Source of the DNA: Candidatus Hecatella orcuttiae
Lineage (GTDB): Archaea > Thermoproteota > Bathyarchaeia > Hecatellales > Hecatellaceae
Assembly (NCBI GenBank): GCA_002011035.2
Contig: MTLY02000001.1
Location: 448,001-512,000 of the forward strand
Direction of reading: 5' to 3'
Length of the DNA stretch: 64,000 nt
Below are positions 27,342 through 44,861 of this stretch, one piece after another. The notes beneath the pieces were generated by a model. It had not been told where the DNA came from. It did not search any database and saw only the letters and a program-made list of their open reading frames with translations. A program made the position numbers and the translations under genes. Numbering within the stretch: the stretch's first letter is position 1; the number at the start of each line of letters is the position of its first letter.

Positions 27342-28325
27342 ATGGGTCGGAGAAAGAAACACGCTCCCAGAAGAGGCTCCCTAGCTTTCAGGCCTAGGGC
27401 TAGAGCTGAAACTCTGGTTCCTAGAATCCGCTATTGGCCGGAGGTTCCGGAGACCAAACTCTTAGGCTTCGCAGGCTACAAAGCGGGAATGACCTACGGC
27501 TTTGTAATAGAAAACGAGCCCGGTTCAAGGGACTACGGAAAAGAAGTCTTCTGCCCCCTAACCGTCGTGGAGACGCCTCCCCTCCGGATCTGTGCCCTCA
27601 GGACCTACGAAGCCACCGTAGACGACCTGAGGACGCTGGGAGAGGTTTGGGCTGAAAAGCTTCCCAAAGAACTTGGGAGGCTGGTGAAGCCGCCTAACAA
27701 GCCGTCCCCCAAGGAGAAGTTGGCGGACTTGGAGAAAAACCTTCACAGAGCCTGCGACGTCAGAGTTTTAGCCTGCACCAACCCCCGGGAGGCTGGGATC
27801 GGTAAGAAAAAGCCTGAGCTCATGGAAATCGCCCTAGGGGGAAAGTCTGTGGAGGAAAAGTTTCAGTTTGCCAAAAATCTTCTGGGAAAAACCGTCCCCG
27901 TCACCGAAGTCTTCCAGGAAGGCCAGCTGGTGGACGCGGTAGCCGTGACCAAGGGTAAAGGCTTCGCCGGGCCTGTGAAACGTTTCGGAATACGAATCCT
28001 CCAAAAGAAATCCAGGAAGACAGTGAGAGGGGTGGGCACCATCGGCCCGTGGCACCCAGCTCTAGTCATGTCCTCCGTCCCCAGAGCCGGCCAGCTAGGT
28101 TTCGCGCGGAGAACAGAGCTGAACAAGAAAATCGTGAAGATAGGGGTGAACGGCTCTGAAATCACCCCCAAAGGCGGCTTTCTCAGGTATGGAAGGGTGA
28201 AAGGCCCCTACATTCTTTTGAAGGGAAGCATCCCCGGACCTCCCAAGCGCCTCATCAGGCTTAGGCACGCGGTAAGGGCTCCTGAGAAAATTTTGAAGCC
28301 TGAAATCACCTACCTGCATGTCTAA
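27342..28325 (+). CDS. rpl3: 50S ribosomal protein uL3
   Basis: PRRGSLAFRPRARA, FAGYKAGMT, VTKGKGFAGPVKRFG, GTIGPWHP. Confidence 0.97.
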   Translation: MGRRKKHAPRRGSLAFRPRARAETLVPRIRYWPEVPETKLLGFAGYKAGMTYGFVIENEPGSRDYGKEVFCPLTVVETPPLRICALRTYEATVDDLRTLGEVWAEKLPKELGRLVKPPNKPSPKEKLADLEKNLHRACDVRVLACTNPREAGIGKKKPELMEIALGGKSVEEKFQFAKNLLGKTVPVTEVFQEGQLVDAVAVTKGKGFAGPVKRFGIRILQKKSRKTVRGVGTIGPWHPALVMSSVPRAGQLGFARRTELNKKIVKIGVNGSEITPKGGFLRYGRVKGPYILLKGSIPGPPKRLIRLRHAVRAPEKILKPEITYLHV

Positions 28326-28342
28326 AGAGGCGAGGCTGGCTT

Positions 28343-29200
28343 ATGCCAAAAATAGAGTTGGAAGAAGAAGCCGAGGAAGAAGAGGAGGCTGCCGAGGTTG
28401 AGGAGGTCTCTGTGAAGCCGGGGAACCTCCCCATATACGACTTGAGGGGGAGAGTGAGAGGCGAGGTTTCACCGCCCAAAGTGCTGGCAACCCCCATCAG
28501 GCCGGATGTGATCAAAAGAGCTGTGGTGGCCCTGCAGAGTCGGAGACATCAACCCCAAGGCCGGGACCCCATGGCTGGAAAGAGAACCACCGCCCAGTCC
28601 TTGGGTGTAGGGTTGGGAATAGCTAGGATCCCCCGGGTCAAAGGCCGCGGTACCCCCAGAGCCGGCCAAGGGGCCTTTGCCCCTGGAACAGTCGGGGGGA
28701 GACTGGCTCATCCGCCTGTGGCTTGGAAGAATATTCTGAAACACATCAACGAGAAGGAGAGAAAACTGGCGTTGAAGTCAGCCATCGCCGCCTCCGCTCA
28801 GAGGGAACTGGTGGAGGCCCGAGGGCATAGGATAGACGCTGTTAAAAGTCTGCCCCTAGTGGTTCAGGACGAATTGGAGGGAATCAAGCGTACGGGAACC
28901 CTGCGAATGGTTCTGAGGGTCTTGGGGTTGCAGGCGGAGTTGGAGCGGGTGGAGGAAAGCCGTAAGGTTCGAAGCGGCAAAGGTAAACTCAGAGGCAGAA
29001 AACTAAAGCAGAAGAAGGGCCCCCTCATCGTAGTTCAGGGAGACGGAACTCTCAGAAGAGCAGCCTCCAACATCCCCGGAGTCGACGTGGCGAAGGTGGA
29101 AAGCCTCAACGCGGAGCTTCTCGCCCCCGGAGCCCATCCCGGACGGCTTACGATTTGGAGCGAGTCAGCCTTTAAGAGGCTGGGAGAGCTTTTCTCTTGA
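28343..29200 (+). CDS. rpl4: 50S ribosomal protein uL4
   Basis: [49 protein letters not shown]; acidic N-extension or alternative GTG 28412. Confidence 0.97.
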
Positions 29201-29216
29201 AGGAGGTGCCTGGGTT

Positions 29217-29483
29217 TTGAAGCTCAGCCCCCATAAGGTCATCCTTCATCCGGTGATAACCGAGGATGCTGTGGCCCTCATCGAAACCGAAAACAAGCTG
29301 GTCTTCGTCGTCGACAGGAGGGCGGGTAAGGAGCAGATAAAGAGGACGGTGGAAACCCTCTACAAGGTAGGCGTGGAGAAGGTGAACACTGTCATAACCC
29401 CCAGAGGGCAGAAGAAAGCCTTCATCAAGCTTAAACCCGAATTTAAGGCTTCAGAAATAGCCATAAAGCTGGGCATCCTCTAA
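29217..29483 (+). CDS. rpl23: 50S ribosomal protein uL23
   Basis: [28 protein letters not shown]. Confidence 0.96.
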
Positions 29484-41889: not shown

Positions 41890-42130
41890 AGCTTCCACTT
41901 TTTCAATTCTTTGAGTCTTTTGTCGTTCCTCTTGAGTTCTTCGCGGAGGGACCCCGATCCGCGTCTCCAAAAAAGGCCTTTTGGTCTTCTAGAAGCTTAG
42001 CTTCATCTTTAGGCTGCCATGTTTCTGGGGGATAAACCCATGAACCGTATAGGCATGCCCATCTACCATAAAGCCAGCCGGGTCTCTGCCCGGGGTAGGT
42101 GGCTGAAGGGGCCTCTTCCGGGCCATGGAG
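41890..42130 (-). pseudogene. Frameshifted DUF5320-like remnant
   Basis: PWPGRGPFSHLP / QRPGWLYGR...PKDEAKLLEDQKAF / SLREELKRNDKRLKELKK across frames; matches the 30645 protein and the coiled-coil module. Confidence 0.65.
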
Positions 42131-42297
42131 TTAGCCAGCCTTCTTAAATTCTTCTAGGCTAGCACATTTTTGCTCTAGAATATTTATGCACATATAGTTT
42201 TGCTGAAACGTTTAAATTCCAGAAAAACTTATACGTTGAAGCCTGCAAAAACCGTAAAAGGCTGGAAAACATCTAAAAAAAGCTCAGTGAAAGATAA

Positions 42298-43011
42298 ATG
42301 GGTAAACGGTTGAGGGTTCAAAGAAGGGGAAGAGGCACCCCCACCTTCCGAGCTGCCACCCTAAGGAGAGTAGCGCCAGCCCGCTATCCGCCCTTCGCAG
42401 CCCTAACCCAAGAGGGCATGAGAGCGCGGGTGGAGCGAATCCTTCACGACCCTGGCAGAGGCGCTCCTTTGGCTTTAATCCGCTGCGAAGACGGCAGAAC
42501 CTTCTACAATATCGCTGGAGAAGGCCTGTATGAGGGGAAGGAAATCCGGATAGGGGGAGCAGCCTCCTTGGAGGTGGGAAACATCGTGCCCTTAGCCCAA
42601 GTCCCCGAAGGCTCCACGGTTTACAACGTGGAAAAGCAGCCCGCCGATGGGGGGAAGTTTGCTAGGTCCTCCGGCAGCCATGCCACGGTCATCGCTCACA
42701 CTCCCGCGGGAACCACCCTCAGACTGGCTTCGGGGAAGGTCATCACCGTCCACAGCAGCAGCCTAGCCACCATAGGAGTTGCGGCTGCGGGGGGGAGAAC
42801 GGAGAAGCCCTTCATGAAGGCGGGTGAAAAATACTACCTCATGAGAGCCCGGGGGCGGAAGTATCCCCTGACCAAAAGCAACAGAATGATCGCTGCTCTC
42901 CGCCGTATGCCCGGCTCCGTTCCTCGGACGGCTCCGCCGGGGCAGAAGGTGGGGCTCATCGCCCCTAGGAAGACCGGCCGGGGCAGAAAGGCTAGGGTTA
43001 AATTTGCCTGA
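42298..43011 (+). CDS. rpl2: 50S ribosomal protein uL2 (HPxGGG loop absent)
   Basis: MGKRLRVQRRGRG, HDPGRGAPLA, DGGKFARSSG, GGRTEKPFMKAG, APPGQKVGLIAPRKTG. Confidence 0.95.
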   Translation: MGKRLRVQRRGRGTPTFRAATLRRVAPARYPPFAALTQEGMRARVERILHDPGRGAPLALIRCEDGRTFYNIAGEGLYEGKEIRIGGAASLEVGNIVPLAQVPEGSTVYNVEKQPADGGKFARSSGSHATVIAHTPAGTTLRLASGKVITVHSSSLATIGVAAAGGRTEKPFMKAGEKYYLMRARGRKYPLTKSNRMIAALRRMPGSVPRTAPPGQKVGLIAPRKTGRGRKARVKFA

Positions 43012-43082
43012 GGCGCCAAGCCGGGTGGGAAAAGCTTAAAGCAGGCTGGGCAATGATGCGTATGGTGGATGGTTGACGAAGG

Positions 43083-43490
43083 ATGCCTAGGGAATTTCGT
43101 TATAGAGGCTACACATTGGAGCAGCTACAGCAGATGCCCATGGACAACTTCGTCGCTCTGCTACCTTCTAAGGCTCGGAGAAAACTGCTGAGAGGTCTTT
43201 CCCCTGAGAACAGGAAACTGCTGGAGGCCATCCGTAACCTTAAAAGGGCTGGGAAAGCCTCTGGAGGAGCGCCCCTCTTGAAGACTCACTGCCGGGACAT
43301 GGTCATCCTCCCCGAGATGGTGGGGGTAACCATAGCGGTTCACAACGGAAAAGAATTCGTCCCCGTGGAGATCAAGCCGGAGATGGTGGGACATCTTCTA
43401 GGCGAGTTCGCCGTCACCATCAAGAAGGTTGTCCACGGAAACCCCGGCATCGGAGCCAGCCGGAGTTCCATGTATGTGCCTTTAAAGTAA
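43083..43490 (+). CDS. rps19: 30S ribosomal protein uS19
   Basis: [51 protein letters not shown]. Confidence 0.97.
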
Positions 43491-44861
43491 GGCCGATGAG
43501 ACCCCTCGGCTTTCCCTCTCAGACCTTGTTTTTTCGACGGCGAGCTCCACCTGCTCCACCGCCGTCCCTAGGTAGGCGTTGGGGTCTAGGGCTCTGTTTA
43601 TCTCCTCCTCGCTGAGGCGGCTTCTCACCTGCTCGTCGGCTAGGACGATTTCCTTTAAGGGTTTTTTCTCCGCCCAGCTCTTCATAACCAAACCTCGGAG
43701 GACACGGTGGGCTTCCTGTCTTCCCAGCCCCTTTTTGGTTAAGGCCAGCATGAGGGACTCAGACATGATCCTTCCCTGGGTGAGGTTCAGGTTTTCCAAC
43801 ATTCTCTCTTCATTCACCTTCAAGCCTTTCAAGACTTGGCAGATGAGGCTGAGCATGTAGTCGAGGGTGATGAAGGCGGTGGGCAGCAGAAACCTCTCCG
43901 CCGAGGAGTTGGTCAAGTCCCGCTCCTGCCAGCTGGGTATGTTCTCCAACGCCGGCACCACTAAGCCCCTCATCAGCTTGGCCAAGCCGCAGACTCTCTC
44001 CGAATGAATGGGGTTAACCTTGTGGGGCATCGTCGAACTTCCCACCTGTCTTCCCACGTCGAAGGGCTCCTGCAGCTCCCCTATCTCCGTCCTCTGCAGC
44101 TCCCGGATTTCAGCGGCGAACTTGTCGAGGCTGGAGGCAACCAAGGCTAGGAGGCAGATGAGCTCAGCGTACCGGTCCCTTTGAACTATTTGGGTGGAGG
44201 CCTCCACGGGGTGAAGCCCCAAGCGTTCCATGGTCAGCTTCTGAACGGTTAAACCTTCAGGGCCGAAGCCTGCCTGGGTTCCCACCGCCCCGGTGAGCTT
44301 CCCCACCAAGAACCTTTTCCGCCCTTCCCTCAGCCTTTGGATGTGGCGGGATACCTCCCTCAACCAGACGGCGAACTTCAACCCCAAGGTCATGGGGAGT
44401 GCGTGCTGTCCATGGGTTCTGCCCACCATCAAGGTTTTCCTATGCTTCCAGCTGAGCTCCAACAGAACTCCTTCCAACATGTTGAGCTTCGATTCCAAGA
44501 CAACCAAGGCTTCTTTAAACTGGAGACCTGTGGCGGTGTCGAGGATGTCGCTGCTGGTGGCTCCGTAGTGGACGTAGCCTCCGTCTTCCCCGCAGACTTC
44601 AGCTAAAGCCTCCACCACGGCCATGATGTCATGCTTGATGGTTTTCTCGATTTCCTTCACCCTCTCCAGCTTCACATAGCGGGTGGAGGCTTTTTCCCCG
44701 ATTTTCTCAGCTGCCTTTTTGGGGATGACGCCTACCTCGGTGAGGGCCCAGGCCAAGGCGGCTTCCACCTCCAGCATCTTCTGAAGCCGGGCTTCTTCTT
44801 CGAAGATCCGCCTCATCTCCGGGGTGCCATATCTCCCTGTGTCGATGGGTAGAATGGGCAA
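43482..44861 (-). CDS. purB: Adenylosuccinate lyase
   Basis: [40 protein letters not shown]. Confidence 0.96.

Follow-up and report, generated by a model that had tools for sequence, protein, structure and literature searches.

Ribosomal protein uL2 carries, in the loop around the residue equivalent to E. coli His229, one of the most conserved protein elements beside the peptidyl-transferase centre, and the uL2 gene of Candidatus Hecatella orcuttiae encodes a protein from which this loop is missing. The locus raises the question of whether the loop has truly been lost from a working ribosomal protein, whether the gene is a decaying copy, or whether the gap arose during assembly. The gene lies in the 64,000-nucleotide stretch of DNA analysed here (the window; window coordinate = C1 coordinate - 448000, where C1 is the contig), which belongs to a genome (G000) of 1,747,726 bases in 3 contigs, with 97.12% completeness and 4.25% contamination, such that ~3% of the genome may be unassembled.

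Translation of positions 42298-43008 (+) gives a uL2 of 237 aa in a frame that is open throughout and that reads ...KYPLTKSNRMIAALRRMPGSVPRTAPPG... across the loop site; retranslation of residues 188-219 (nt 42859-42954), KYPLTKSNRMIAALRRMPGSVPRTAPPGQKVG, bears out the letters given for the C-terminal region in the initial annotation of this DNA. Both uL2 domains were recognised, the N-terminal RNA-binding domain Ribosomal_L2_N (PF00181) at residues 29-83 (29.1 bits, cut-off 23) and the C-terminal domain Ribosomal_L2_C (PF03947; 99.2 bits, cut-off 33.7), with the latter match ending at about profile position 101-102 of 126, immediately before the His-Pro-x-Gly-Gly-Gly positions. The best match among solved structures is the uL2 chain 9e6q_AA (E 2.4e-60), and matches to the uL2 chains of archaeal and eukaryotic ribosomes (E 2.4e-60 to 2.5e-49) span residues 1-230, the HMMER alignment to the solved chains placing a gap in the query precisely between ...MIAAL and ...VPRTAPPG. 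The C-terminal motif APPG.KVG...R.TGR is retained as TAPPGQKVGLIAPRKTGRGRK. The loop ..RG.AM....HP.GGG.. (loop-L2/D2, with the E. coli His229 equivalent) was not found, the protein reading KSNRMIAALRRMPGS in its place; HP.GGG is a hallmark motif, and its absence does not decide uL2 homology. The features of the locus are listed in Table 1.

Table 1. Features at and around the uL2 gene, in window coordinates.
Feature	Position	Strand	Basis
uL2 (rpl2) coding sequence, 237 aa plus stop	42298..43011	+	Open reading frame, Pfam L2_N and L2_C, structure match, single locus
Remodelled C-terminal loop, residues 190-211, PLTKSNRMIAALRRMPGSVPRT	42865..42930	+	Alignments with 29 relatives
Approximate junction of the 30-nt (10-codon) deletion, R203/M204 by L-INS-i	42904..42909	+	DNA (8 relatives) and protein (29 relatives) alignments
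uS19, 71 nt downstream of uL2	43083..43490	+	Pfam Ribosomal_S19, 102.3 bits; same order in relatives
Adenylosuccinate lyase (purB), convergent with uS19	43482..44861	-	Pfam Lyase_1 and ADSL_C
AT-rich intergenic stretch of ~260 nt upstream of uL2	42036..42297	+	Sequence and list of open reading frames
uL3-uL4-uL23, ~13 kb upstream of uL2	27342..29480	+	PF00297 and tblastn

A six-frame search located uL2 in all 40 of the related genomes searched, and proteins were extracted from 29 loci of 29 other genomes, 12 from the same family and 17 from the same class. All 29 carry H-P-[F/H/Y]-G-[G/S]-[G/S] at the loop site, within the pattern [KR]G.AM....HP[FHY]G[GS][GS], and in every one of them the interval from MIAA to APPG is 10 residues longer than in the window uL2, whose residues 190-211 replace a stretch of ~32 residues, P.[TV][KR]G.AM....HP.GGG.H.H.GKP..V.... 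MAFFT L-INS-i set RR of the window uL2 against HP of the relatives, followed by a 10-residue gap whose counterpart in the nearest relatives is FGGGRHKHPG and, beyond it, by MPGS against the relatives' KPTT, the exact placement of the gap at R203/M204 being ambiguous. The DNA alignment with 8 relatives gave a clean 30-nt gap with substitutions on both flanks, and translation of all frames across the site uncovered no hidden HP.GGG. About ten residues including the His had been described as missing in the initial annotation, as the 10-residue gap and H202R confirm; its further remark that RG is replaced by KS is right for the change of G to S, a departure from 97% G in the relatives, and not for the K, which is common there (TKG, TRG).

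Of the 81 columns with conservation of 90% or more among the 29 relatives, 72 keep the consensus (alike in the window uL2 and in the sister sequence P0001, below), in agreement with the earlier impression that the rest of the protein is conserved. Six of the nine departures fall within residues 194-207. Those specific to the clade of these two sequences include G194S, A196R, H202R, P203R and T207S, and Y128H is a further one of the nine; the new arginines R196, R202 and R203 stand within eight residues. P190, M197 and the APPG.KVG anchor are preserved in the remodelled protein.

The sole close match in a search of 5.8 billion protein clusters was P0001 (Logan; 237 aa, 91% identical), which reads ...KYPLTKSNRMIAAVRRMPGSIARTAPPG..., with the same gap and three conservative changes inside the loop stretch; its 90% cluster has four further members, all of them the window protein with different start calls. 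The two proteins share start and stop and differ at 22 of 237 residues, 3 of them among the 81 conserved columns versus 19 among the 156 variable ones (odds ratio 0.28, Fisher p = 0.035), a weak test of the avoidance of conserved columns that is made at the protein level only. In a tree inferred with the loop columns removed (a quick IQ-TREE run under LG+G4, with SH-aLRT values only), the two group together with 100% support inside the family clade (97%), on a stem of 0.44 changes per site with tips of 0.05 and 0.08. Identity to three related genera is 63-66% for uL2, versus 76-82% among those genera, and 74-78% for uS19, versus 84-87% among them; the ratio of divergences is ~1.6 for both proteins, so the length of the stem does not set uL2 apart. 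A scan of metagenome contigs for the DNA of P0001 did not find it, returning 16 loci that were all at most 49% identical, and the nearest named genome records are MAGs labelled 'Candidatus Hecatellales' and 'Candidatus Bathyarchaeia' (57-65% identity), with no relative closer than 65% in the genome contig scan. Judged from these sequences, the deletion is old and maintained.

We consider, on the basis of metagenomic sequence, that the window uL2 is probably a real, functional, genus-level lineage-specific variant of an uncultured Bathyarchaeia genus, in the family to which records titled 'Candidatus Hecatellales' belong. A lineage-specific variant was one of three options in the initial annotation, beside a second paralog and an assembly error, and it is the one favoured by a deletion common to two sequences with 22 differences in 237 positions, by their fully supported clade and by the lack of any other case in the surveys below; the earlier interpretation as a whole is partly supported.

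The rarity of the variant was assessed at three scales. With residues 176-230 as the query of a targeted search of the 5.8 billion protein clusters, P0001 scored 98 bits and all other hits at most 49 bits (136 hits), and no further loop-less uL2 was found; to be seen by this search a protein must have 5-residue words in common with the variant, so independent losses would escape it. In the class, PF03947 matched in 377 of 401 Bathyarchaeia genomes, G000 included, which is among the weakest (E 1e-28, profile 2-102). Inspection covered all 8 others with E > 1e-32 and three at ~1e-33, the other 365 being assessed by profile match only. The uL2 of G013, G054, G112 and G338 is cut at contig ends, although over 157-233 the G013 piece exceeds the query by 10 residues and hence has the loop; that of G260, G277, G341 and G369 is frameshifted or N-masked, with HPHGGG, HPYGSS or ..GGRHRH encoded in another frame; and the three at ~1e-33 are full-length proteins of 247 aa. 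The 150 class-screen matches listed all reach at least profile position 113, the remainder having E values of 1e-33 or better.

For the phylum, PF03947 matched in 396 of 401 Thermoproteota genomes of at least 80% completeness, 64 Bathyarchaeia genomes being common to the class and phylum samples. The five weakest others keep the His and a full-length loop (HKFGGG twice, HVHGGG, HPHGGG and HPFGGG, the last in an N-masked and frameshifted gene); six slightly stronger scorers from the genus of the HKFGGG pair fell outside this inspection of residues. No other case was thus seen among the 376 Bathyarchaeia and 395 Thermoproteota genomes with a match, of which the weakest scorers were inspected, and the His and the loop length are constant in the phylum where examined, while the Pro and the glycines vary slightly.

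HP.GGG itself is not strictly invariant in the Thermoproteota: glycines are replaced by Ser in some Bathyarchaeia families (HPYGSS at L019, L021 and L030; HPFGSG at L014 and L028) and two other Thermoproteota families have Lys or Val in place of the Pro (HKFGGG at L103 and L104; HVHGGG at L105), the His being retained in all inspected. Frameshifts or N-masking of uL2 at or near the HP.GGG codons occur in five reference genomes (L092 in G369, L093 in G341, L094 in G260, L100/L102 in G277 and L107/L108 in G706) and are probably assembly errors in G-rich runs, the canonical motif being readable in another frame. The open-access papers and bioRxiv preprints searched yielded no report of a cytoplasmic uL2 without the loop; a paper on the Giardia ribosome (PMC10123126) was set aside as a candidate for loss of the uL2 His, its 'conserved histidine' being that of EF-G.

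What the loss could mean for the ribosome depends on the role of the loop. PMC2691814 describes loop-L2/D2 as a stretch of 18 residues (H. marismortui L2 187-204, PNVRGVAMNAVDHPFGGG), ten of them universal in all cytoplasmic ribosomes, that creates the pocket in which Mg2+ microcluster D2 is bound. The microcluster engages the phosphates of A876, G877 and G2623 (numbered as in H. marismortui) and contributes to the framework of the peptidyl-transferase centre. In human uL2, His216, which lies a few residues past HP.GGG, nestles in the H93 loop and is concluded in PMC11724314 to stabilise H93 and thereby the peptidyl-transferase centre, and the uL2 His is described as critical for peptidyl transferase activity in PMC3529544.

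We propose that 10 codons were lost in the ancestor of the genus and that the residues on either side were substituted, whereby the loop P.VRG.AM....HP.GGG (18 residues, packing on Mg2+ microcluster D2 beside the peptidyl-transferase centre) and the His-rich hairpin after it, which nestles in H93, would have given way to a shorter, Arg-rich turn (..KSNRMIAALRRMPGS..). Such a loss would do away with the close-packed His/Gly core and leave H93 without its protein plug, and the shortened protein would assemble into active ribosomes. On the most economical view, the guanidinium groups of R196, R202 and R203 might then bind the unstacked phosphates directly, taking the place of the backbone carbonyls and water that surround Mg2+ in the usual pocket, a suggestion drawn from the sequence that we advance only tentatively.

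Both 23S copies of the genome were aligned with the 23S of ten relatives and with E. coli rrlH for numbering. H93 (E. coli 2588-2606) reads GACCGTCGTGAGACAGGTC in both copies, identical to that of five relatives (G039, G025, G002, G001 and G040), and neither copy has private changes at E. coli 780-786 and 1780-1784, which we take to be the nucleotides of microclusters D2 and D4, the positions being converted arithmetically from H. marismortui numbers. The compensating 23S changes envisaged in the initial annotation were accordingly lacking at the known contact sites (H93, 780-786 and 1780-1784). The Pfam match lengths of eL43, uL3 and uL16 are the same as in 14-20 relatives, and eL43, which is known from the yeast assembly literature to adjoin uL2, showed no internal indel and a slightly longer C-terminal tail when aligned directly with its counterparts in 12 relatives; no compensating insertions specific to G000 were found in the three proteins. 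These contact sites and proteins set the limits of the search for compensation, which is a partial survey of the ribosome.

That rRNA partners and neighbouring proteins are unchanged would be expected if the variant were real and the loop simply dispensable in this lineage, with no special role for the arginines. Such dispensability fits the variability of the motif in the phylum (HPYGSS in Bathyarchaeia; HKFGGG and HVHGGG in other Thermoproteota) and the non-fungal mitoribosomes, which have no loop-L2/D2 according to PMC2691814. On the other hand, the concentration of six of the nine departures in residues 194-207, with three arginines in eight residues, looks like remodelling rather than simple loss, and no other genome inspected has lost the His. 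We regard plain dispensability as possible, if somewhat unlikely.

The genome carries two divergent rRNA operons, which may be related to the uL2 variant or independent of it. Operon 1 (C2:464353-470232; L067, L089) has a 16S ~690 nt longer than the model and a 23S of 3190 nt with a GC content of 0.636, and operon 2 (C3:4-4683; L068, L090), at the very start of C3, has a 16S lacking everything before model position 829, together with a 3857-nt 23S that carries a ~780-nt insert and has a GC content of 0.59. The two 23S genes are 76-82% identical and the shared part of the 16S 86-91%. The C3 23S groups with the same-family genomes G001 and G002 (100/100), and the C2 23S is unplaced, with a long branch (0.24 versus a median of 0.096) and an odd base composition. 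At columns invariant in ten relatives, the C2 23S differs at 91 and the C3 23S at 30, with 7-71 in the controls. These differences of the C2 copy include a compensatory pair in H71 (U1946C with A1960G) and G1950A, U1956A and C2551U at sites where the ten relatives, E. coli and the C3 copy agree; A2448G, present in this copy as well, falls at a position that is variable among the relatives.

All three contigs seem to come from one organism, as only C2 carries IleRS, ArgRS, the PolD large subunit, aCPSF1 and SMC, and tetranucleotide distances between contigs equal those within contigs; aragorn with introns allowed proved too noisy to separate one organism from two, and essential genes and tetranucleotides were used instead. 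It is possible that the C3 operon is mis-joined, because it lies at a contig end. C1:1-1344 and C2:1-1350 each open inside a gene, and the two genes are paralogs (78% nucleotide identity, first 18 residues identical), which indicates repeat-induced assembly breaks. The last 10 kb of C2, past the rRNA operon (C2:471000-481129), have a GC content of 0.33-0.43, against 0.52 for the genome, and could represent foreign or mobile DNA, or else a mis-join. No tRNA was found within the 64-kb window; elsewhere on C1, aragorn in strict mode reported a tRNA with a CTA anticodon (labelled Pyl).

Two further observations concern other 23S genes of the class. Four Bathyarchaeia genomes from three families (G022, L069; G015, L077; G027, L075; G037, L078) share substitutions in the peptidyl-transferase core (E. 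coli 2447-2453 and 2499-2509), namely G2447A, A2448G, C2452U, A2453U, C2499U, U2500C, A2503C, U2504C and G2509U in one MAFFT alignment. These look coordinated, with 2452/2504 swapping letters and 2447/2500 passing from G.U to A.C, if these are, as we assume, pairing positions of the 23S core. The same-family MAG G003 (280 contigs, 88% complete) contains AT-rich 23S-like genes (C140:5522-9382 and C259:2129-5357; L079, L081) that blastn, at E 1e-20, could not match to any of the other 12 Bathyarchaeia 23S genes; these AT-rich genes are likely bin contamination.

A more far-reaching, and rather improbable, version of the remodelling hypothesis would have the cytoplasmic ribosomes of the genus rebuilt in the second shell around the catalytic centre, with the His/Gly loop and the H93 hairpin gone and the arginines taking over the D2 phosphate contacts, perhaps in connection with the two divergent rRNA operons, such that two kinds of ribosome would form around one uL2.

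The genome holds one match to PF03947, and tblastn with the full-length proteins of 7 relatives and with their C-terminal 80 residues detected no second uL2, everything else having E > 0.1; a six-frame scan of the genome for HP.G[GSA][GSA] produced many chance matches, none of them uL2-like by tblastn. The search for another rpl2 suggested in the initial annotation thus came back empty for the 1.75-Mb genome, and its option of a second paralog is not supported: Pfam and tblastn locate a single locus, with the orthologous neighbours uS19 and convergent purB. As in the S10-type cluster, the single-copy uL2 adjoins uS19, and the order uL2-uS19-purB is common to the window and to locus L004 of a relative (G006). 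From the single locus and the uS19/purB synteny, the window uL2 is therefore an ortholog of the relatives' uL2.

Upstream, uL23 and uL4 occupy the position before uL2 in several relatives. In the present genome, uL3 was identified by its PF00297 match at C1:475342-476289 and uL4 and uL23 by tblastn with the relatives' proteins (C1:476427-477480), and the uL3-uL4-uL23-uL2-uS19 cluster is broken in the family, with 13 kb between uL23 and uL2 here. The genes that precede uL2 in relatives (L003-L010, L017, L025) include Lon, topoisomerase and uL4 with or without uL23, among others; those after uS19 include purB, YbjQ and transglutaminase, and at L006 a DUF4013 gene directly follows uL2.

Since it is the only uL2 gene, the variant must presumably work in ribosomes. 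The converse, that it is a decaying or non-functional copy and that a working uL2 is supplied by the missing ~3% of the genome, by a minority of the population or by a partner organism, would accord with the inactivation of the E. coli 50S in vitro by mutation of the His (Cooperman 1995, as cited in PMC3529544 and PMC2691814) and with the lack of compensation at the sites examined. It is hard to reconcile with an intact 237-aa frame with the same ends in both diverged copies, the retention of 72 of 81 conserved columns, substitutions that avoid conserved columns, the conserved synteny with uS19 and the lack of a second locus or fragment in 1.75 Mb, and we consider it very unlikely.

Public runs of several studies carry window positions 42000-43500, none of the listed runs being RNA, and Logan contigs from four runs of four studies were compared with the genome. 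Over the whole of 42000-43500, the contigs of run X1 (27476 nt, depth 299) and run X3 (8158 nt, depth 13) have 0 differences; that of run X5 (4395 nt, depth 64) covers 42000-43480 with 0 other letters and a lone gap at 43322 within uS19, and that of run X6 (1071 nt, depth 23) covers 42610-43500 with 0 differences. X1 and X3 are possibly source samples, and X5 and X6 are not flagged as such. Over 42860-42960, all four independently assembled runs have 0 other letters and 0 gaps, in a comparison made on contigs, which drop rare variants, such that the population could contain a minor canonical allele. The identical protein is present in JGI/IMG, Logan, MetaClust and NCBI records, one of them on a 1.27-Mb contig, and the deletion is fixed in every assembly examined. 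The assembly error raised in the initial annotation, and in particular a collapsed in-frame deletion, therefore left no sign at 42860-42960 when checked on contigs instead of reads. An assembly or consensus artefact, absent from the cells, is highly improbable and largely refuted: the genome is metagenome-derived, its contigs break at repeats and four other Bathyarchaeia genomes have a frameshifted or N-masked uL2 at the same place, but four separate assemblies from four studies give identical, gap-free DNA over 42860-42960, the several substitutions flanking the gap are not expected from assembly collapse, the 91%-identical P0001 has the same gap and the reading frame stays open.

The variant suggests that a supposedly essential loop can be lost in nature. 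The sole uL2 of a free-living archaeon without the loop would be a natural counter-example to its universality and, if the reading as a real and functional variant is true, the job of the loop, holding Mg2+ microcluster D2 and H93, would be doable otherwise or unneeded under some conditions. The variant also provides a natural sequence for loop-swap work and a target for cryo-EM.

Compared with the canonical archaeal uL2 of solved ribosomes (9e6q_AA, 6skf_BC, 1s72_A and 1jj2, the last being Haloarcula marismortui according to PMC2691814), the window uL2 is alike over residues 1-230 and shares both Pfam domains, the APPG.KVG motif and the adjacent uS19 gene; it differs by a net loss of 10 residues, which takes away the HP.GGG portion of loop-L2/D2 and the hairpin after it, and by G194S, A196R, H202R and P203R. 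The eukaryotic uL2 (RPL8) has, as described in PMC11724314, a beta-hydroxylation site at His216 in the hairpin just after HP.GGG, the part that is deleted here, and the window uL2 has no equivalent residue, H93 itself being unchanged. The non-fungal uL2m, e.g. that of human, is like the window uL2 a natural uL2 without the loop that binds the Mg2+ microcluster, as far as PMC2691814 describes it; the likeness is by description, and uL2m belongs to heavily remodelled, organellar ribosomes, whereas the present case concerns the cytoplasmic ribosome of a free-living archaeon with canonical 23S contact sites. An experimental parallel in position is E. coli L2, in which the same residue is altered (His to Arg here) and whose His229 (H230) laboratory mutants reportedly have no peptidyl-transfer activity (Cooperman 1995 and Diedrich 2000, as cited in PMC3529544 and PMC2691814). 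Unlike those mutants, the window uL2 presumably works, because it is the organism's only copy.
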